A DNA stretch of 64,000 nt from Bacillota bacterium (GCA_017397935.1 JAFQHN010000015.1:2746-66745); one strand, 5' to 3'; shown: positions 8,853-18,520, counted from the stretch's first letter. The notes: generated by a model from the sequence alone, not told the origin. Numbers and translations are program-made.

Positions 8853-9203
8853 TTATGCGTTTTGGGGTTCATTATTGCCGTTTATCAGTTGGCCCAATTC
8901 ATCGCAGGCAGCCTTAACCAGCGCCCAGCTTTGTTCGGCCTCGGCCTGCTGCAAGTTCTGCAATATCAGGCGCTCCCGGCGGTTTTTGGCAATCAGCCCC
9001 AACTTCTCGTCGTAGTTTTGCAGCAATTCTTCTCCACGGCGGATAGAATCGAAAACGGCCTGACGGCTGATATTAAGCATGGCGGCAATTTCACCCAGAG
9101 AATAATCCTCATTATAAGTAAGTGCCAAAGCCTGCTGCTGCTTATCCGTCAGCAAGCAGCCGTAAACATCAAACAGCAAAAGCTTTATGCCCAGCTTATC
9201 CAT
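8853..9203 (-). CDS. ylxM: YlxM/UPF0122 small helix-turn-helix protein (SRP-operon associated)
   Basis: Sigma-70 region-4-like HTH (…LSLGEIAAMLNISRQAV…); immediately upstream of ffh; start set at MDKLG with GAGGT RBS. Confidence 0.75.
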   Translation of the reverse strand: MDKLGIKLLLFDVYGCLLTDKQQQALALTYNEDYSLGEIAAMLNISRQAVFDSIRRGEELLQNYDEKLGLIAKNRRERLILQNLQQAEAEQSWALVKAACDELGQLINGNNEPQNA

Positions 9204-9321
9204 GGTTTCAACCTCATTCCGTGCTATCAAGTTTTTCAACTTGACACATTCAACTTGCTTATTATACAACAGCCTCCATGTTCTGTCAAGGGTTTTTGCT
9301 TAACATCCAACATTTTTTTTC

Positions 9322-9765
9322 TTAAACCAAACCTTGGCGCAGCCAGCGCACCAGCCGCAGCAGGATAACCGATAAGGCAACCCAAATCAGCGTGTAATAC
9401 AGGCAAATTTGCCCTAGAAAATTAAACGGCAGCGCAGAATAATCCCATACCCCGGCATCTGCATAAAAATTAAACGCCATGCCGAAAAGTAACTCTACTG
9501 TTGTGATAATCAGCCCGCATAACAGCGCCTTAGCCAAATCCGGCAAACCGCCTGCCCTTCTGTCCAGATAATCCACCGCCCAAACGCAGATCGCACCGGC
9601 CATCAGCATTGACCAATGAGTATGCCCCCGCCAGAAAATCTCAACCAGACCATAGCCCAGGGCACCGGCCAACAGCAGCAGTATGTGCCCAAAAAACCTG
9701 CTCTCGGCCAGACTTTGCCAGTTTTTGATATATGCCGTGTGGGATAAATTGTGCAAAATCAACAC
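9322..9765 (-). CDS. Integral membrane protein of unknown function (4 predicted TM helices)
   Basis: Hydrophobic 147-aa ORF; GTG/TTG start ambiguity; no family assignment possible by eye. Confidence 0.5.
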   Translation of the reverse strand: MLILHNLSHTAYIKNWQSLAESRFFGHILLLLAGALGYGLVEIFWRGHTHWSMLMAGAICVWAVDYLDRRAGGLPDLAKALLCGLIITTVELLFGMAFNFYADAGVWDYSALPFNFLGQICLYYTLIWVALSVILLRLVRWLRQGLV

Positions 9766-9850
9766 CGCCTTCTAATAAAAATTATTATAAAAATAAACCC
9801 CGCCAGCCTGGGTAAGCTGTACGGGGTTATTATGAGCCAAATATTAAATT

Positions 9851-11281
9851 TTAACGCAGTTTATTGTTGTCGAAAACTCCCAGCTTGAATACCTGCTTCA
9901 ATTTCTTCATCTTATCATCGGTATAAGGCGGGAAACGCAAAGGATTGGGCGTGGCGTGAGCCTTAAACACCGAACGCTGATTGGAAAATTCCAGGAAGCC
10001 GGCCTCACCGTGATAACGGCCCATGCCGCTGGCACCGTTGCCGCCAAAGGGCAAGCCGGGGTGCAGCATATGCGTCAGCGTGTCATTGATGCACAGACCG
10101 CCGCTGCGCAGCTTATATTGCACCATGCGGTTGGTTTCATCAGATTCATTGAAAACATAGCAGGCCAAAGGTGTGGGATGATTATTGATAAAACGAACGG
10201 CGTTGATAACCTTGTCATAAGTTAAAACCACCAAAATAGGGCCAAAAATCTCCTCCTGCATAACCGGGTCATCCAGATTAACATCGGTTAAGATGGTGGG
10301 GGCAATCTTCAAAGCCTGTTCAACAACCTGCCCGCCAAAGAACAAACGGGCGCTGTCACGGTAGCGGTTGATATAAGAGTTCAGGCGGTCAAAATGCTGC
10401 TTGTTGACAATACGGCCGTAATCAGCAGATTTAAGCGGATTTTCACCGTAAAGCTCACGGATGGCAAACACCAGCGAGGACATAAATGCTTCCTTCTGCT
10501 CCTCGCAAACCAGCACATAATCAGGGGCCACACAGGTCTGGCCGGCATTTAACAGCTTGGCAGAGGCGATACTTTTGGCAGCTTTGTAGATGTTGGCGGT
10601 GTTGGTTACGATGCAGGGAGATTTGCCGCCCAACTCCAAAGTAACCGAGGTCAGGTTCTTGGCAGCGGCAGTCATAACTTCTCTGCCGACAGCCGGGCTG
10701 CCGGTGAAGAAAATATGGTCAAATTTCTCAGCTACCAGGGCCTTGGCCACATCAGGGCCGCCGGTAACCACATGGACATAGTTTTCGGCAAAGGTGCTGT
10801 TGATCATTTTTTCCAGCACGGCAGAGGTGTGCGGTGCATGCTCAGACGGTTTTACCACGCAGGTATTGCCGGCCAAGATAGCGGAAATCAACGGAATAAT
10901 CGTCAACTGCACAGGATAGTTCCACGGCGAGAGAATAAGAACACAGCCCTTGGGGTCATATTGCACATGAGCTTTGCCGTGCATGGTCATCTTGGTGGGC
11001 AGTAAATTCTTGTTTTTCATCCAGCCGCCGCCTTTCTGGAAGGCAAGGTCAAACTCCTGCATAACGGGCAGCAGCTCGGTGGTATAGGCTTCGTATTCAG
11101 ATTTCCCCAAATCCTGCTGCAAGGCGTACAGCAGCTGGGATTCGTAATTTTTCATGGCGTCACGCAAATCGGCCAGCGCATTGGTGCGGAATATCTTGCC
11201 CGACATATCGTGAGTGGTCTGGCTGGTTAAAAAATAGGCTTTCTGGGCGGCAACCAGCTCAGAATAAGCAGTTTTGCTCAT
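9851..11281 (-). CDS. NAD(P)+-dependent aldehyde dehydrogenase family protein (class-3-like)
   Basis: ALDH motifs (ELGGKSP, catalytic Cys region …GQTCVAPDYVLV…, FGP…); start at MSKTAY after GGAGGA RBS. Confidence 0.85.
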   Translation of the reverse strand: MSKTAYSELVAAQKAYFLTSQTTHDMSGKIFRTNALADLRDAMKNYESQLLYALQQDLGKSEYEAYTTELLPVMQEFDLAFQKGGGWMKNKNLLPTKMTMHGKAHVQYDPKGCVLILSPWNYPVQLTIIPLISAILAGNTCVVKPSEHAPHTSAVLEKMINSTFAENYVHVVTGGPDVAKALVAEKFDHIFFTGSPAVGREVMTAAAKNLTSVTLELGGKSPCIVTNTANIYKAAKSIASAKLLNAGQTCVAPDYVLVCEEQKEAFMSSLVFAIRELYGENPLKSADYGRIVNKQHFDRLNSYINRYRDSARLFFGGQVVEQALKIAPTILTDVNLDDPVMQEEIFGPILVVLTYDKVINAVRFINNHPTPLACYVFNESDETNRMVQYKLRSGGLCINDTLTHMLHPGLPFGGNGASGMGRYHGEAGFLEFSNQRSVFKAHATPNPLRFPPYTDDKMKKLKQVFKLGVFDNNKLR

Positions 11282-11424
11282 ATTATCCTCCAAAATATAT
11301 AGTTAAATTTATCTGCAATTATAATATTACAGAGAATATTATAGCGAAAAACCGCTGGGAAATCAATGCGAAATTGGTAAAAGACAAAAAATCAGCATTA
11401 CCGTTTAAGTGATAACGCTGATTT

Positions 11425-12006
11425 TCAGATTTTAACATAGGTTTTGATAATTTCCTCGGCAATAGCCAGCTTGGTCTCGCGGCGGTCCATGGCCAACCGT
11501 TCAATATAAGAGTGTGCTTCCGGCTCGGTCCAGCTGCGCTCGGCAATCAACAGGCATTTGGCGCGGGATACCAAACGCAGTTCGTCCAGCTTTCGGGTCA
11601 GCTTGCGGTTTTCGGCCTGCAATTTGGCCAGCCGTTGGTTGGTGATTGTTACCATTGACAAGGTTTGCTCAAATGTTATGCGGTTAAGCGGCTTTTGCAG
11701 TACAATTACGCCGTTTTCCTCCAAATGCGGCTGCAATAAGTTCAGTAAATCGCTTTTATACAGCAGAATAACATAGGCTGAGCTTTGCTGGGCCGCCATC
11801 ATGGCCAAATCCTGCCCGTTCTCATCCAGCAGCGGCGCGTTAATGATAATCAGCTCAAAATCCTGCGATGACATAATGCGTCGTGCTTCGTTGGCGCTGG
11901 TTGCCATCGTAATTGCAGGGGTGGCAAAGTTAATATTTATCATTTGTACCAGGGATTGCTGCCCCTTTTCACCGGAGATAATCAATATCGAATCCAGAAA
12001 AACCAC
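11425..12006 (-). CDS. ANTAR-domain response regulator (receiver-like domain plus ANTAR RNA-binding antitermination domain)
   Basis: C-terminal ANTAR signature (…RAKCLLIAERSWTEPEAHSYIERLAMDRR…); located directly downstream of glnA; start codon (GTG) uncertain. Confidence 0.75.
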   Translation of the reverse strand: MVFLDSILIISGEKGQQSLVQMININFATPAITMATSANEARRIMSSQDFELIIINAPLLDENGQDLAMMAAQQSSAYVILLYKSDLLNLLQPHLEENGVIVLQKPLNRITFEQTLSMVTITNQRLAKLQAENRKLTRKLDELRLVSRAKCLLIAERSWTEPEAHSYIERLAMDRRETKLAIAEEIIKTYVKI

Positions 12007-12031
12007 CCCCCTTTCAATTTACTAAAAAACT

Positions 12032-13348
12032 TTAATATACACCCAGATACATCTTTTCCTCAGCCGCAGTTTTATCCTCGGCCGCACAGTAATACTGCCA
12101 TTCATCACGCTTGGCGCTGACGAATAACTCCAAAATCTCCTCCGAGATTACCGATTTTACAAAATCGCTGTTTTCGGCAGCCTTAATCGCCTCTCCCAAA
12201 TTGCGAGGCAGCTGGGCAAATTTAGCCTGCTCGGTCGGCACATCATCACCTTGCAGCGGCTCACTAAGCGGCAGCTGCTGCTCTACACCCTCCAAACCGG
12301 CATTAAGCAGCAGAGCAAACGCCAGATAAGGGTTCAGGCAGGAATCCGGAGAGCGCAGCTCCATGTGGACGGAATTGATGGTGGAAACCGGAAAGCTGAC
12401 CAGCTGGAAACGGCTGGTGTCCGACCAACTGATATACGCAGGGGCTTCAAAGCTGCCAAAACGCGCATAAGAATTGGTGAGCGAATTAAGAAACAAAGTG
12501 ATTTCGCTGATGCGGTTAAGGATGCCGGCAATAAAATGGCGCGCTGTTGTCTGATGAGGACTGTCGGCACCAAAAATATTCTCGCCGTTACGATACATAA
12601 AGAAGTGCGTGTGCAGGCCGCAGCCATATTGGTCCGGGAAAGGTTTGGGCAGCATGGAAGCGTGCAGGCCGTTATAATTGGCCACCGTTTTTACCACCGT
12701 CTTAAAGCTGAGGAAATCATCGGCAGCGGTCATAGGGTCGCTGGGCTTGAAATCAATCTCATTCTGGCCGGGGCCGCGTTCATGCTGAGATGTTTGCGGC
12801 TGAATACCCATTTCTTCCAGATACAGGCAAATCTGGCGGCGCACATCCTCGCCTTTATCCAGCGGCGCAACATCCAGATAACCGGCATAATCATTGGGGC
12901 GATGCGAAATGCTGCCGTCCTCATTGAGTTCCAGCAGATAAAATTCACATTCGGTACCCAGTTTGCATTGTAGGTTGGCAGCCTGCAAACGTTGAATGGC
13001 CTGATTGAGCATAAAACGCCCATCGCCCAAAAAAGGACGGCCATCAGCATAACAGATATTGCAGAAAACCCGCACCACCTTGCCGGTGGAGGGGCGCCAG
13101 GGCAGAAAAGCGATACTGTTGGGGTCCGGGAAAAGCAGCAGCTCGGCGGATTCGTTGCTCATAAAGCCTTTTACTGCCGATGCCTCGAAGGGAATACCGT
13201 AAAGAAAGGCATGGGGCAGCTCATTGGGCATAATGGAAATGGTTTTTTGCACGCCAAAAACATCGCAGAAAAGCAGGCGGATAAATTTGACATCATTATC
13301 TTCAACAAATTGCAGAGCTTCTTCAACTGTACGCAGCATTTGTAACAC
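12032..13348 (-). CDS. glnA: Glutamine synthetase, type I
   Basis: 438 aa, GS beta-grasp and catalytic domain motifs; GGAGGTG RBS. Confidence 0.9.
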   Translation of the reverse strand: MLQMLRTVEEALQFVEDNDVKFIRLLFCDVFGVQKTISIMPNELPHAFLYGIPFEASAVKGFMSNESAELLLFPDPNSIAFLPWRPSTGKVVRVFCNICYADGRPFLGDGRFMLNQAIQRLQAANLQCKLGTECEFYLLELNEDGSISHRPNDYAGYLDVAPLDKGEDVRRQICLYLEEMGIQPQTSQHERGPGQNEIDFKPSDPMTAADDFLSFKTVVKTVANYNGLHASMLPKPFPDQYGCGLHTHFFMYRNGENIFGADSPHQTTARHFIAGILNRISEITLFLNSLTNSYARFGSFEAPAYISWSDTSRFQLVSFPVSTINSVHMELRSPDSCLNPYLAFALLLNAGLEGVEQQLPLSEPLQGDDVPTEQAKFAQLPRNLGEAIKAAENSDFVKSVISEEILELFVSAKRDEWQYYCAAEDKTAAEEKMYLGVY

Positions 13349-13423
13349 CTCCGGAGAGTTTATAATACATCATATTATAACATAACGCTGAAAAAAAACC
13401 AAGGCTGACAAGCCAAAAAAGTG

Positions 13424-13452
13424 TTGACAATACCCCGCCCTAATCATATAAT
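13424..13452 (+). promoter_or_regulatory. Near-consensus sigma-70-like promoter (TTGACA-17 bp-TATAAT) for the type III GS gene
   Basis: Exact TTGACA at 13424-13429, 17-bp spacer, exact TATAAT at 13447-13452. Confidence 0.6.
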
Positions 13453-13470
13453 AGTAAGGTAATCGGCAAA

Positions 13471-13508
13471 GGCGCTGTGGTAATTATCCGCAGTGCCCTT
13501 TTTATTTT
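13471..13508 (+). terminator. Terminator-like hairpin plus U-run in the 5' leader of glnN, ~15 nt after the predicted TSS (candidate attenuator)
   Basis: GGCGCUG…CAGUGCC stem (one G-U) followed by CUUUUUAUUUU; lies between promoter and the ATG ~110 nt downstream. Confidence 0.4.
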
Positions 13509-13616
13509 AACAGACTAACAGATTAGTTTGTTGGTGTAATATCATAGCAGTATGCTAAAATATTGTTGTGTGGGCCGTTGAGTTTGTTTAATAACCAATT
13601 TATGGAGGTAATAAAA

Positions 13617-15707
13617 ATGACAAATGTTCCCGAATTATTTGGCAGCAACGTCTTTAATGAAAATGTAATGAAGGAAAGACTGCCCAAGGCGGTTTATAAG
13701 GCGCTGAAAAAGACTATTCAGTCCGGCAATCCGCTTGACCCTTCGCTGGCCGAATCTGTGGCCACCGCTATGAAGGATTGGGCAATCCAGAAAGGTGTGA
13801 CCCATTATACCCATTGGTTTCAGCCGCTGACCGGCATTACCGCCGAAAAACATGACAGCTTTATCGAACCGACCGAGGGTGGTAATGTAATTATGGAGTT
13901 CTCCGGCAAAAACCTTATCCAGGGTGAGCCTGACGCCTCCTCTTTCCCCTCCGGCGGTCTGCGCTCCACCTTTGAGGCACGCGGATACACCACCTGGGAC
14001 CCTACCTCTTACGCTTTTATCAAAAATAATACCCTGTGTATCCCCACCGCTTTTTGCTCTTATGGCGGCGAGGTGTTGGATAAAAAAATTCCCCTGCTGC
14101 GCTCGATGGAGGCCATCAATAAGCAGGCGCTGCGTATTCTGCGGCTTTTCGGCAACAATGATGCCAGCCGTGTAACCACCACGGTAGGCGCAGAACAGGA
14201 ATATTTTCTGGTTGATGCCGATATGTTCAAAAAGCGCAAGGATCTGCGTTTTGTCGGCCGCACCCTGTTTGGCGCCATGCCGCCCAAGGGGCAGGAAATG
14301 GAAGACCATTATTTTGGTGCCATTCGCTCTCAGGTAATGTCTTTTATGCAGGATTTGGATGAGGAATTGTGGAAACTGGGTGTGCTTTCCAAAACCCGCC
14401 ACAATGAGGCCGCACCGGCCCAGCATGAGTTGGCCCCTATTTTTTCCTCCACCAATATATCCACGGATAACAACCAGCTGGTTATGGAAATGATGAAGAA
14501 ATTGGCTCCCAAGCATGGCCTTACTTGCCTGCTGCATGAGAAGCCTTTCGAGGGTGTAAACGGCAGCGGCAAGCATAACAACTGGTCTATGGGCACCGAT
14601 TTGGGCGAAAACCTGCTGGAACCCGGCAAAACCCCGCGCGAGAACAGACAGTTCCTTACTTATCTTACTGCGGTTATCAAGGCAGTTGACGATTACCAGG
14701 ATTTGCTGCGTATCTCGGTGGCCAGCGCCGGTAATGACCACCGCCTGGGTGGGCATGAAGCACCGCCGGCTATTGTTTCCATCTTCCTGGGTGATGAGCT
14801 GGAAGCTGTGCTGGATTCTATCACCGGAGACAAAACTTATGAAGAAGTCGGGCAGAGCATTTTGGATTCGGGCGTTAGTGTATTGCCGAATCTGCCCAAA
14901 GACAGCACTGACCGCAACCGTACCTCTCCCTTCGCCTTCACCGGCAATAAGTTTGAGTTCCGTATGCTGGGTTCCGGTTTCTCTATTGCCTGCGCCAACA
15001 TTATTTTGAACGCTATTGTCGCTGATACGCTGGGCAAATTTGCCGATGAACTGGAAAATGTGCCGGCCGAACAGTTTGATTCGGCGCTGAACGCTCTGCT
15101 GAAACGCGAATTGAAGGAGCACAAGCGGATTATCTTCAACGGCAACAATTACTCCGAAGAATGGGTTATCGAGGCTGAAAAGCGTGGCTTGCTGAACCTG
15201 AAAACCACTCCGGATGCGCTGCCCCACTACACCGATGCCAAAAATGTAGCGATGTTTGAGCGTCAGGGCATTTATAATTTGAAGGAAATTGAGGCCCGTC
15301 AGGACAGCATTTTGGAGGAATACTATAAAATTATCCGTATCGAAGCTTTAACGATGCTGGATATGGCCAGAACGGAAATTTTCCCTGCCGTTCTCAATTA
15401 TTCCGAGGAATTGGCCCGTACGATTATCGCCAAACAAGCGGTTGCAGGTATCACCACCAAAGCTGAGGAAAGATTGCTGGCCAAAATTTCCGCATTGAAC
15501 GAGCATCTGGCTGACACCATTGATGAGTTGGATGCTGCCCTGAACGGTGCCGCAGCTTGCAATACAGCTACCGAAACAGCCGTATATTATCGTGATGCGG
15601 TGTTGAGCAAGATGAACGAAATGCGTGCGGTCTCCGATAAATTGGAGCCGATGATTGCCGCCAAATACTGGCCCTTCCCCACTTACAGCGACTTGTTGTT
15701 TTACTAA
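13617..15707 (+). CDS. glnN: Glutamine synthetase, type III (GlnN-like, ~700 aa)
   Basis: Length and N-terminal region typical of GSIII; start MTNVPELFG after GGAGG RBS. Confidence 0.88.
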
Positions 15708-15731
15708 AATTACATATAAATAACATACAAA

Positions 15732-15777
15732 CAGGGCGTGTTTCCACCAAAGATGGACGGCACGCCCTGATTTTTTG
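15732..15777 (+). terminator. Rho-independent terminator after glnN
   Basis: CAGGGCGTG…CACGCCCTG 9-bp stem then ATTTTTTG. Confidence 0.7.
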
Positions 15778-15780
15778 TAA

Positions 15781-15806
15781 AAAAAACCGCCTTGCGGCGG
15801 CTGATA
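15781..15806 (-). terminator. Terminator downstream of tRNA-Gly (GCCGCC-GCAA-GGCGGC hairpin plus T-run on minus strand)
   Basis: ccgccttgcggcgg palindrome flanked by A/T runs. Confidence 0.55.
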
Positions 15807-15880
15807 TGGAGCGGGTGAAGGGAATCGAACCCTCGCTAAAAGCTTGGGAAGCTCTTGTTCTGCCATTAAACTACACCCGC
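15807..15880 (-). tRNA. tRNA-Gly (anticodon CCC)
   Basis: Minus-strand sequence GCGGGTGTAGTTTAATGGCAGAACAAGAGCTTCCCAAGCTCTTAGCGAGGGTTCGATTCCCTTCACCCGCTCCA folds as a cloverleaf; anticodon loop TTCCCAA; GTTCGATTC T-loop; CCA end encoded. Confidence 0.85.
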
Positions 15881-15996
15881 AAAATGTTTTATTATTATAT
15901 CATTTTGCCGTGGTTTTGTAAAGGGTTTGCCGAGAATAATTTCCAAAAAAAATACCCGAAGCTGCAAACCTCGGGTATTTTAATATGGCAAAATTA

Positions 15997-16773
15997 TTAT
16001 TTATCCAGGAAATTTTTAAGCACATAAGCATTGGCCTGGCGGTTCATGGCCGCAATATGGGCAGTCAGGTTGATATGCTTGGGGCAAACCTGCTTGCAGT
16101 TCTGCGAGTTGCCGCAATCCTGAATACCACCTTTGGCGGTCAGCGCCTCCAAACGCTCATCGGCCTGCGTTCTGCCAATGGCGTGCATATTAAACATACG
16201 CACCTGGGCAATGGCATTGGGGCCGACAAAATCAGACTTGGAGTTATAATTGGGGCAAGCCTCCAAGCAACAGCCGCAAGTCATACAATGCGAGATTTCA
16301 TAAGCAATGCTCTGGTCTTTCTCCGACAGTCTGGGGCCGCGGCCGATTGCCCAGGAACCATCTACCCGTACCCAAGCATGAACGCGCTTCAAGTTATCAA
16401 ACATCTTGCTGCGGTCGATCATCAAGTCACGGATAACGGGGAATTTGGTCAGCGGCTCCAACTGAATGGGGCGGTCACCGTATTTTTCAATCAATTTATC
16501 GGTCAAAGCAGCGCAAGCCTGACGCGGTACGCCGTTGATCAGCATGGTGCAGGCGCCGCAAACTTCTTCCAGACAGTTACATTCCCAAACAACAGGGTTT
16601 ACCTGCTGGCCGTCAGCGGTAACAGGATTTTTACGAATTTCCATCAATGCCGAAACAATATTCATGTTCGGGCGATACGGAATATGAAATTCCTGCCAGT
16701 AAGACGGCGAGGAGGGATTGTCACGGCGTTTGATTTTCAGTTTAATATATTTTACATTCTTCAAGTCTACCAT
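15997..16773 (-). CDS. sdhB: Succinate dehydrogenase/fumarate reductase iron-sulfur subunit
   Basis: 2Fe-2S and 4Fe-4S/3Fe-4S cysteine clusters (CxxxxCxxC…, CxxCxxCxxxCP). Confidence 0.9.
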   Translation of the reverse strand: MVDLKNVKYIKLKIKRRDNPSSPSYWQEFHIPYRPNMNIVSALMEIRKNPVTADGQQVNPVVWECNCLEEVCGACTMLINGVPRQACAALTDKLIEKYGDRPIQLEPLTKFPVIRDLMIDRSKMFDNLKRVHAWVRVDGSWAIGRGPRLSEKDQSIAYEISHCMTCGCCLEACPNYNSKSDFVGPNAIAQVRMFNMHAIGRTQADERLEALTAKGGIQDCGNSQNCKQVCPKHINLTAHIAAMNRQANAYVLKNFLDK

Positions 16774-16786
16774 TATTGTCCCCTCC

Positions 16787-18520
16787 TTAATATTTTCTTT
16801 CCACGGGTTTCAGCAGGCTGATGTCAACCTCTTCCCAGCTGAATTCCGGCGCACCGTTTTTATAGGTGGCCAGCGTAGTCTTCAAGAAGTTCTCGTCATC
16901 ACGCTTTGGGAACTCCGGTTTATAGTGAGAACCGCGGCTCTCGTTACGGCGCAGGGCACCGCCAACGATAACACGGGCCAAATCCATCATACCGCGCAGC
17001 TGACGAACATACATAACCGTCTGGTTGGAGTAGCCGCCAAAGTCGGTGATATTGATGTTGTGCCAGCGCTCCTGGAACTCTTGCAGCTTAACATCGGTTT
17101 CTTCCAGATTTTTGTTAATACGCACAATGGTAGCGTTGCGATACATAATATCGCTCATCTCATCATGCAGTTTGTAGGGATTCTCCTTGCCTTCCATCTT
17201 TGTCAGCTTTTCATGCTCGGCCTGCTGCTTTTTAACGGTCAATTCAGCCAGATTGCCGATGGTTTCAGCAGCAGTAGCATTAAGTCCGCTGACATATTTA
17301 ACAACAGACGGGCCGCAAACAGTACCGCTGTACATAGCAGAAAGCAGAGAGTTGGCACCCAAACGGTTGGCGCCGTGGTACATATAATCACATTCGCCGG
17401 CTGCAAACAGACCGGGAATTTTGGTTTGATGATTCCAGTCAACATGGATACCGCCCATAAAATAATGTACGGCGGGGAAAATCTTCATCGGTACTTTGCG
17501 CGGGTCGTCGCCATAGAAGGTCTGGTAAATATCCATAATACCTTTTAAGCGGCGGTCCAGATATTCGGTGGGCAGGTGGCTCAAATCCAGGTAAACCTGG
17601 TTTTTGCCGTCAACACCCAAGCCCATATTTACGCAAACATCATAAATCTCACGCGCGGCAATATCACGGGGCACCAAGTTGCCGTAGGTGGGATATCTTT
17701 CTTCCAGGAAATACCACGGTTTGCCGTCCTTATAAGTCCATACGCGGGCACCGTCACCACGGGCAGATTCGGACATCAGACGCAGTTTATCATCACCGGG
17801 CATGGCGGTGGGATGAATTTGCACAAACTCACCGTTGGCATAAGGTATGCCGTGCTGATACAAAATAGCGGCAGCCGAACCAGTATTGATGATGGAGTTG
17901 GTAGAACGACCGTAAATCATGCCTGCGCCGCCGGTTGCAATAACCACAGCGTCAGCCACAAAATCCTTAATCTCCATGGTGGCCAGATTCTGGGCAACCA
18001 CGCCCTTGCAGACGCCGTTGTCATCAATCAGCAGGTCAATCATTTCCCAGTTTTCATATTTGGTAACCAGGCCCAAAACTTCTTTGTAACGCACCTGCTC
18101 ATCCAGCGCATACAGCAGCTGCTGACCGGTGGTGGCACCGGCAAACGCGGTACGGCGATTCTTTACACCGCCGAAACGACGCAAGTCCAGCAGACCCTCG
18201 CTGGTACGGGTAAACATTACGCCCATGCGGTCCATAGCATAGATGATGCCGGGGGCGTTTTCCACCAAACCCTTTACCGGGGTCTGGTTGGCCAAAAAGT
18301 CGCCGCCGTAAATGGTATCATAAAAATGCTGGTCAACGCTGTCATGCTCACCCTTGGTATCCAGAGCCGCATTTACGCCGCCCTGCGCACAAACCGAGTG
18401 AGAACGCTTCACCGGTACCAAGGAAATCAAATCAACATGAATATCTTTTTCGGTAATTTTTAAGGTGGACATCAAACCGGCCAAACCGCCGCCGACAACC
18501 ACAACTCTGGTTTTTTCCAT
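16787..18520 (-). CDS. sdhA: Succinate dehydrogenase/fumarate reductase flavoprotein subunit
   Basis: N-terminal FAD-binding GxGxAG, histidine FAD-attachment region, 577 aa. Confidence 0.9.
   Translation of the reverse strand: MEKTRVVVVGGGLAGLMSTLKITEKDIHVDLISLVPVKRSHSVCAQGGVNAALDTKGEHDSVDQHFYDTIYGGDFLANQTPVKGLVENAPGIIYAMDRMGVMFTRTSEGLLDLRRFGGVKNRRTAFAGATTGQQLLYALDEQVRYKEVLGLVTKYENWEMIDLLIDDNGVCKGVVAQNLATMEIKDFVADAVVIATGGAGMIYGRSTNSIINTGSAAAILYQHGIPYANGEFVQIHPTAMPGDDKLRLMSESARGDGARVWTYKDGKPWYFLEERYPTYGNLVPRDIAAREIYDVCVNMGLGVDGKNQVYLDLSHLPTEYLDRRLKGIMDIYQTFYGDDPRKVPMKIFPAVHYFMGGIHVDWNHQTKIPGLFAAGECDYMYHGANRLGANSLLSAMYSGTVCGPSVVKYVSGLNATAAETIGNLAELTVKKQQAEHEKLTKMEGKENPYKLHDEMSDIMYRNATIVRINKNLEETDVKLQEFQERWHNINITDFGGYSNQTVMYVRQLRGMMDLARVIVGGALRRNESRGSHYKPEFPKRDDENFLKTTLATYKNGAPEFSWEEVDISLLKPVERKY

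Follow-up and report, generated by a model that had tools for sequence, protein, structure and literature searches.

A probable ANTAR-type transcription attenuator with a single hexaloop in the leader of a type III glutamine synthetase gene from a Bacillota bacterium

Examination of a 64,000-nucleotide stretch of DNA from a Bacillota bacterium (GCA_017397935.1 JAFQHN010000015.1:2746-66745; hereafter the window, with positions counted from its first letter) revealed a locus, between positions 11425 and 15777, in which two glutamine synthetase (GS) genes are divergently oriented: glnA, which codes for a type I enzyme and is followed by a gene coding for an ANTAR-domain protein, and glnN, which codes for a type III enzyme. 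The leader of glnN contains a consensus promoter, a small hairpin with a loop of six nucleotides (hexaloop) and an intrinsic terminator that overlaps this hairpin, and it probably constitutes an ANTAR-type transcription attenuator of the NitR/GnfR kind, governed by nitrogen. That ANTAR proteins override the leader terminators of nitrogen genes, including the GS genes of Firmicutes, is a general principle already established or predicted. The present case goes a little beyond the textbook picture by its single hexaloop at the 5' end of the RNA, and by the invariant Asn of a pseudo-receiver domain in a regulator linked to GS.

A list of open reading frames (ORFs) combined with a Pfam scan confirmed the divergent type I and type III GS genes and the ANTAR gene beside glnA, as put forward in an original prediction made for this DNA. 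The glnA frame (12032-13348, minus strand) matches Gln-synt_N and Gln-synt_C (E 1e-87), and its start is best placed at the ATG found eight bases past a GGAGG. The best relatives of GlnA in the PDB are GSI-alpha enzymes (e.g. 8ufj and 4lnf, E 1e-98 to 1e-90), the closest solved structures being 8ufj, 8s59 and 8tfb; the catalytic motifs align with those of 8ufj and the enzyme looks catalytically intact. On NCBIfam TIGR00653 the protein scores 335 bits, below the equivalog cutoff of 429 bits, and on these comparisons it appears to be a somewhat divergent GSI-alpha. GlnN carries all of GSIII_N, Gln-synt_C and Gln-synt_C-ter (E 2e-82), and is 100% identical to a protein annotated as glutamine synthetase III in a Bacillota metagenome-assembled genome (MAG). 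The 25-nt gap between the glnA stop and the ANTAR start contains no predicted terminator; judging from this gap and from the terminator-like hairpin further downstream, glnA and the ANTAR gene probably form one transcription unit, which is consistent with the co-transcription originally proposed while falling short of demonstrating it. The pair is kept in four other loci (L085-L088) and in 11 glnN loci. The coordinates of all features are collected in Table 1.

Table 1. Features of the glnA-ANTAR and glnN locus (window coordinates).
Feature	Position	Strand	Description
ANTAR regulator gene	11425..12006	-	193 aa; degenerate receiver-like N-terminal domain, coiled coil, C-terminal ANTAR domain
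glnA, type I (alpha-type) GS	12032..13339	-	435 aa from ATG 13339; ORF open to GTG 13348
glnN promoter TTGACA-17-TATAAT	13424..13452	+	12/12 consensus; predicted start near G13459
Candidate ANTAR-binding antiterminator hairpin CGGC/AAAGGC/GCUG	13464..13477	+	4 bp + hexaloop; A1 = 13468, G4 = 13471
Intrinsic terminator (predicted)	13471..13508	+	stem 13471-13480/13488-13497, loop 13481-13487, U-run 13499-13508
Remaining glnN leader	13509..13616	+	hairpins 13509-13532 and 13543-13570; RBS (ribosome-binding site) GGAGG 13604-13608
glnN, type III GS	13617..15707	+	696 aa; the putatively regulated gene
Terminator-like hairpin + T-run ending the probable glnA-ANTAR unit	11387..11426	-	consensus scan, 16 pairs; putative function

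The glnN promoter is the sole 12/12 match to the sigma-70 consensus in 10500-16500, in agreement with the near-perfect promoter originally described, and from the usual spacing transcription would start near G13459, about 5 nt before the stem of the small hairpin. The hairpin and U-run of the original prediction were likewise recovered: the terminator, which begins nineteen bases past the end of the promoter (13452), reads GGCGCUGUGG-UAAUUAU-CCGCAGUGCC at 13471-13497, followed by CUUUUUAUUUU, and has 10 pairs, 7 of them G-C, with a predicted folding energy of -18.6 kcal/mol. Just upstream, the 14-mer C13464-GGC/AAAGGC/GCU-G13477 can pair as a 4-bp stem closed by a hexaloop with A at position 1 (A1) and G at position 4 (G4), as is characteristic of ANTAR targets (PMC3369931; PMC8934654). 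The terminator stem opens with the G4 of this loop. Hairpin and terminator are mutually exclusive, as seven nucleotides (13471-13477) belong both to the hairpin and to the 5' strand of the terminator. The small hairpin by itself is worth only -3.0 kcal/mol, and with it enforced the first 50 nt fold at best to -5.0 kcal/mol, so that the terminator is predicted to win unless a factor holds the small hairpin.

To follow this promoter-hairpin-terminator module, we compared 80 glnN loci (loci outside the window bear L numbers) whose proteins are only 60-65% identical. Intergenic similarity to the window extends from the -10 box through the terminator, and does not come from the coding flank. The aligned instances have the general form TTGACA-17-TATAAT, 10-11 nt, CAGC-AANGGC-GCUG, after which come an upper stem and loop that vary between instances, the complementary strand and a U-run. 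Modules are present in leaders of glnN orthologues over a range of 60-83% protein identity, and in the relatives whose GlnN is 79-83% identical both promoter and module are nearly unchanged. Cultured relatives that carry the module include Ruminococcus flavefaciens, Herbinix hemicellulosilytica and Allofournierella massiliensis. A generic scan of the 300 nt upstream of glnN recovered the module in 33 of the 80 loci, against 1.75 in shuffled sequences and 3 in the coding control, and a covariance model matched 33 times among the loci at E<=1e-3, in most cases immediately before glnN. The leader hairpin is thus conserved in orthologous loci, the point on which the original prediction had staked itself. 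On the window the covariance model has one match, at the glnN leader (50.3 bits); searches of the 64 kb by pattern, covariance model and generic scan gave no other convincing copy, and none was found in the glnA leader (13340-13423, minus strand), so that autoregulation of glnA-ANTAR through the module is not supported in this organism. Among plasmids, blastn found nothing matching the intergenic region.

Some loci depart from the simple arrangement. Two full modules stand in series in the leaders of amt-PII fusions in L005, L007, L037, L052 and L058 and in the glnN leaders of L006 and L075, which implies multi-step attenuation in some lineages. Promoterless modules, whose stems include ACAC/GUGU, also occur inside operons, between glnN and amt (L081, L083 and L084). 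Among the compared contigs, four labelled Alistipes, Spirochaetaceae or Bacteroidaceae (L007, L052, L061 and L080) carry a Clostridia-like glnN, and a promoter of Firmicute type with the module is found upstream of amt in L007 and L052 and of glnN in L061; these four contigs are probably mis-binned in their MAGs.

The pairing of the small hairpin was examined in two ways. In the first (A1 alignment), which comprises 31 module instances picked by their likeness to the 14-mer, all cells of the four stem pairs hold standard pairs (100%), with compensatory changes at 2 of the 4 pairs: CAAC/GUUG occurs four times, AAGC/GCUU and UAGC/GCUA once each, and the window itself has a G-U. Stem registers slid by one to three columns are only 7-60% paired. 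In the terminator helix of the same instances 95.8% of cells are paired and 6 of the 10 pairs show compensatory changes; RNAalifold independently gave a 15-pair terminator consensus in which A residues of the loop pair with the U-tract. In the loop, G4 is invariant and position 1 is A in 30 of 31 instances. Since these instances had been selected by similarity to the 14-mer, a second test was anchored on the terminator and made no use of the 5' stem: 88 loci and the window supplied 232 anchors, each an A..G.. hexamer whose G4 opens a terminator stem of 7 perfect base pairs with a T-run behind it. The four bases before the hexamer are complementary to the four after it in 53 cases, against 3, 1 and 0 for shifts of 1, 3 and 4. 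A shift of 2 gives 28 cases; on our reading of the registers, these are largely the same hairpins one base on, with an extra A-U pair. At least eight distinct stem sequences (CAGC/GCUG, ACAC/GUGU, GAAC/GUUC, CAAC/GUUG, AGGC/GUCU and others) are carried on the same loop consensus, the loops of the anchored instances being AAAGGC (27), AACGGC (6), AAAGGG (4) and AAUGGC (3). A conserved RNA switch between hairpin and terminator is well supported by this covariation.

The leader continues for 108 nt from the U-run to the ATG, close to the figure of about 110 nt first given. This spacer contains two strong hairpins (-26 kcal/mol, z = -3.1), the first of which is able to expose an ACAGAU loop, with A1 and G4, if its closing A-U pair opens. 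Neither hairpin is conserved in the closest relatives (L081-L084, 79-83% GlnN identity), where the spacers are unrelated, and we treat them as lineage-specific and outside the switch; the spacer had originally been counted as part of the attenuator layout, and this part of the proposal was not borne out. A search of Rfam at E<=10 over 9000-18000 left the leader unmatched and returned only a tRNA and sub-threshold chance matches, and a known riboswitch or leader family was rejected on that account.

The ANTAR protein matches PF03861 at residues 135-187 (E 1e-13, 51.1 bits vs a gathering cutoff of 27.3), and its residues 38-189 match the PDB sequences of Rv1626, AmiR and EutV. Towards the N-terminus the protein aligns with the receivers of Rv1626 and EutV; Pfam Response_reg has no match in it at E<=0.001. 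The phospho-acceptor Asp is replaced by Asn (residue 56) in a motif IINAPL (dlvimD in Rv1626 vs eliiiN), and Asn occupies this column in 35 of the 35 database homologues that cover it (34-100% identity) and predominates among the locus orthologues. In the homologues, the acidic pair after beta-1 is replaced by S-G, S-S or S-A. As it lacks both the phospho-acceptor Asp and the acidic pair, the protein is not a classical response regulator; of its original description as an ANTAR-domain response regulator, the ANTAR domain stands and the second half does not strictly apply. No kinase gene lies in the neighbourhood, the neighbours of the ANTAR gene coding for an aldehyde dehydrogenase and a CmpB-like protein. 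Like AmiR of Pseudomonas aeruginosa, whose receiver-like domain lacks the conserved phosphorylation residues and which is run by its partner AmiC and not by phosphorylation, the protein is presumably controlled by a partner protein or by a ligand. No AmiC-like gene is found nearby in the window, where the conserved neighbour is GS, and the conserved pairing of glnA with the ANTAR gene makes the type I GS a candidate partner. Such a role is speculation, by analogy with the action of GS on TnrA and GlnR in Bacillus.

Gene linkage connects this protein family to the module. An ANTAR homologue lies within 4 kb of glnN in 15 of the 80 loci, and in 11 of these it stands behind glnA, as in the window. 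Nine of the 15 ANTAR-linked glnN leaders carry the module according to the covariance model or the generic scan, and a diverged hexaloop-terminator was recognised by eye in five more (L024, L075, L077, L079 and L035, the last outside the criteria of the generic scan); no module was seen in the ANTAR-linked L080. In closer relatives the ANTAR orthologue, 64-67% identical, lies on the glnN contig, at the end of an operon composed of genes resembling glutamate synthase (GOGAT) followed by glnA. In the Acutalibacteraceae, an abundant lineage, the GOGAT-glnA-ANTAR operon is itself preceded by a module, GGGC-AAAGGU-GUUC, with a terminator.

The module also precedes other genes than glnN. It was found upstream of asnA (L048, L065, L009 and L018), of amt-PII fusions (L005, L037, L052, L058 and L007) and, at a distance of 267 nt, of pyrG, coding for CTP synthase (L034, 1943-1996). 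A metagenome scan for ACAGCAANGGCGCTG gave 80 matches, of which the 60 without a terminator were discarded as chance or coding; the 20 with a terminator are followed by glnN in 12 cases and by asnA in 2, single cases called by eye stand before ArgG-like and GatC-like ORFs (L100, L156), and two of the 20 (L115, L150) look spurious. The genes preceded by the module code for enzymes that consume ammonium, glutamine or the nitrogen of aspartate; pyrG and the ArgG-like and GatC-like ORFs fall beyond the core of ammonium assimilation. The copy before the GatC-like ORF echoes the remark "just downstream of gatB" in Table S2 of Ramesh et al. (2012), where ANTAR leaders were predicted at GS and ANTAR genes of several Firmicutes (PMC3369931).

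One of the closest known counterparts of the module is found in Geobacter sulfurreducens, where the ANTAR protein GnfR binds RNA carrying CAGGCAAGGGCGCC in gel shifts and the leader terminators concerned are those of nif, glnK and amtB (PMC2995071). The GnfR site is a conserved CAGGCAANGGCGCC directly upstream of and overlapping the terminator stem (Ueki & Lovley 2010, PMC2995071), and the conserved CAGCAANGGCGCUG of the Clostridia module nearly equals it. Compared with the printed sequence, both the window (UCGGCAAAGGCGCUG) and the family consensus (ACAGCAANGGCGCUG) carry a site of the GnfR type; the core GGC-AANGGC-GCC of GnfR agrees with GGC-AAAGGC-GCU of the window at 11 of 12 positions, the remaining base turning a G-C pair into G-U. 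The two systems differ in other respects. GnfR is a genuine response regulator, switched on by the kinase GnfK, whereas the window protein has Asn for Asp and no kinase gene nearby; the Geobacter promoters are sigma-54 dependent, whereas the window promoter is of the consensus sigma-70 type; and the target in the window is a type III GS gene instead of glnK, amtB and nif. The authors of the GnfR study described a conserved sequence and not a hexaloop hairpin.

NitR of Clostridium saccharobutylicum provides a second point of comparison. This ANTAR protein is reported to induce GS and GOGAT genes by antitermination when nitrogen is limiting (Stutz et al. 2007, summarised in PMC6316151), and its gene immediately follows glnA in the same orientation, which is also the order seen in the window. 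The NitR cluster includes GOGAT genes, and GOGAT-glnA-ANTAR clusters occur in relatives. The likeness to NitR is one of gene order and description, and the visible target in the window is glnN, not glnA. The classical targets of EutV (eut), NasR (nasF) and AmiR (amiE) resemble the window in their short-stemmed A1/G4 hexaloop overlapping a terminator, in a regulator gene close by and in the common theme of nitrogen metabolism. They are dual, whereas the window has a single hairpin, about 5 nt from the 5' end of the RNA, and a tighter loop (AANGGC vs A..G..). Of the features by which Ramesh et al. (2012) recognised such targets, the A1/G4 loop and the overlap with the terminator are both present at 13464-13477, and the second of two tandem hexaloop hairpins (of at least 3 bp each) is missing. 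The same hairpin has the one stem and the hexaloop with G4 and A1 that make up the minimal site of Walshe et al. (2022). In their study, a EutV dimer was in contact with one hexaloop at any given time, with G4 flipping out onto an aromatic residue; they took a single hexaloop as the new definition of the minimal site and predicted that such sites exist (PMC8934654).

Taken at face value, these elements suggest the following switch. RNA polymerase starting near 13459 would meet the strong terminator within about 50 nt, and the default product would be a short abortive RNA, with glnN off. The first 19 nt of the RNA (GUAAUCGGCAAAGGCGCUG) could alternatively form the weak 4-bp AAAGGC hairpin, taking 7 nt away from the terminator. 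An active ANTAR protein, encoded 1.4 kb away behind glnA, would bind and stabilise this hairpin; with the hairpin held, the terminator would be unable to form and transcription would read through into glnN. The switch most likely reports nitrogen limitation, given that the same module precedes asnA, amt-PII and other genes using ammonium or glutamine in related Clostridia. With Asn in place of Asp, and hence no phosphorylation at the usual site, it would fall to a ligand or a partner protein to switch the regulator. Control of glnN by the ANTAR protein through the leader terminator, the core of the original prediction, is supported by the A1/G4 hairpin, the covariation, the likeness to the GnfR site and the gene linkage.

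Several observations weigh against this reading. Classical ANTAR targets consist of two hexaloop hairpins, the second overlapping the terminator, and induction by EutV needed both (PMC3369931); among 35 module instances, 5 have another A1/G4 hexaloop hairpin in the 45 nt that follow, against 4.0 expected, which is no excess. Walshe et al. expected single sites mainly where the transcribing polymerase imposes no time limit (PMC8934654), whereas the window hairpin sits at a terminator. The residue of EutV that stacks on G4, Tyr164, is His in the window protein, as it is in AmiR. Many module loci have no ANTAR gene in the 4 kb examined. Finally, loop positions 2, 5 and 6 could be conserved partly for the terminator stem and not for contact with a protein.

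Nor is there space for another hairpin upstream, as only about 5 nt separate the predicted start from the stem; the distance of 10-11 nt from the -10 box to the hairpin is kept in orthologous loci. Modules lying inside operons between glnN and amt, which are free of any constraint from a start site, also have one hairpin only. A dual-hexaloop target, expected in the original prediction, was rejected for want of both a second-hairpin excess and upstream space, and a single hexaloop takes its place.

The covariation proves an RNA switch and leaves the identity of its reader apart, and one may ask whether the same switch is read by another factor, such as a PII-type protein, GS itself, a CsrA-like protein or a small RNA. 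The module loci without a neighbouring ANTAR gene are in keeping with such a reader, and so is the loop itself, which has a GG like the sites of CsrA. Its invariant positions, however, are A1 and G4, with G or A at position 5, which is the signature of ANTAR and not the GGA of CsrA, and the module sequence is nearly that of the site bound by GnfR. ANTAR genes are moreover repeatedly linked to glnN, glnA and GOGAT genes, and in the Acutalibacteraceae the module precedes an operon that ends in an ANTAR gene, so that we regard another reader as unlikely. A small RNA gene would likewise consist of a consensus promoter with a strong terminator close behind it. The element might then produce a stand-alone RNA of about 45-50 nt, for instance a decoy titrating the ANTAR protein in the manner of EutX/Rli55, with the promoter of glnN located in the 108-nt spacer. 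Decoy RNAs do exist for EutV (PMC8934654), and the spacer of the window is unusually long and structured. No promoter-like site was found in it, though (13509-13616, plus strand), and in many orthologues the terminator is 15-40 nt from the start codon, too short a distance for a second promoter to fit; every copy of the module is directed towards a nitrogen gene, and copies lacking a promoter are also found within glnN-amt operons. We consider a stand-alone RNA very unlikely.

The two other explanations dispense with a protein reader or with regulation altogether. Terminator-like sites are common in the region (12 found vs 8.1 expected), and the terminator could act constitutively, as a leaky damper or insulator for a promoter of great strength, the upstream complementarity having no regulatory role. 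In at least eight stem sequences, however, changes in the 5' segment go with changes in the terminator's 5' strand while the loop stays AANGGC, and the module is restricted to genes of nitrogen assimilation, which makes a simple damper highly improbable. A metabolite-binding riboswitch, for glutamine for example, would account for the good fold of the leader as a whole (z = -4.5), and glutamine riboswitches are known in cyanobacteria (PMC6316151). Against it, even the permissive Rfam search found no family in the leader, and the conserved part is limited to the 14-nt hairpin and the terminator, the rest of the leader not being conserved; of all the explanations considered, a riboswitch has the slimmest chance.

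If the ANTAR-read attenuator holds, it offers a testable model of how uncultured Clostridia of the gut and rumen switch on glnN, asnA and amt-PII by means of a 14-nt hairpin. A single hexaloop at a terminator bears on the question raised in 2022 of whether ANTAR sites with one hexaloop act in antitermination, and a regulator subfamily with an invariant Asn, habitually found behind GS, points to some nitrogen-sensing input. A bolder version would make this a distinct class of ANTAR switch, in which one 5'-terminal hexaloop suffices, the INAPL pseudo-receiver is not phosphorylatable and the signal arrives through contact with the co-transcribed type I GS or with PII. We think this version rather unlikely; it would amount to an RNA-level counterpart of the GS-TnrA/GlnR circuit of Bacillus, one GS acting as the sensor of nitrogen status and thereby setting how much of the other is made.

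Some further observations concern the surroundings of these genes. In the closest relatives (L082, L085 and L086), a split glutamate synthase operon of archaeal type, with the domains GATase_2, Glu_synthase, Fer4, Pyr_redox_2 and GXGXG, is located between glnN and glnA-ANTAR. Region 9322-13340 of the window is without these genes and keeps the downstream synteny (ANTAR, aldehyde dehydrogenase, CmpB-like), which suggests a local deletion or relocation of the glutamate synthase genes. Upstream of the GOGAT-like operon, palindromes containing TGTATACA (e.g. TGTATACAGTGTATACA) occur at ~3300-3400 in L081, ~3725-3755 in L082 and ~3760-3790 in L083. They look like the operator of a DNA-binding regulator, and are absent from the intergenic region of the window. 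On the minus strand of that region, a hairpin GGCU-UGUC-AGCC (13391-13414), followed by UUGG and eight U, lies between the -35 box of glnN and a possible extended -10 of glnA (TGTTATAAT, 13382-13374, minus strand); it might stop antisense transcription into glnA, or be meaningless.

At the other ends of the two units, a sub-threshold match to Rfam L10_leader at 11377-11510 on the minus strand (27 bits vs a gathering score of 44) was judged spurious, its score being driven by the hairpin after the ANTAR gene. Downstream of glnN and convergent with it lies a tRNA-Gly(CCC) gene (15807-15880, minus strand), which has its own promoter-like site of 11/12 with a TG extension (15922-15894, minus strand) and is directly followed by a terminator-like hairpin (15802-15785, minus strand). 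Position 15777, where the region studied ends, falls between the glnN stop and this tRNA-Gly unit.

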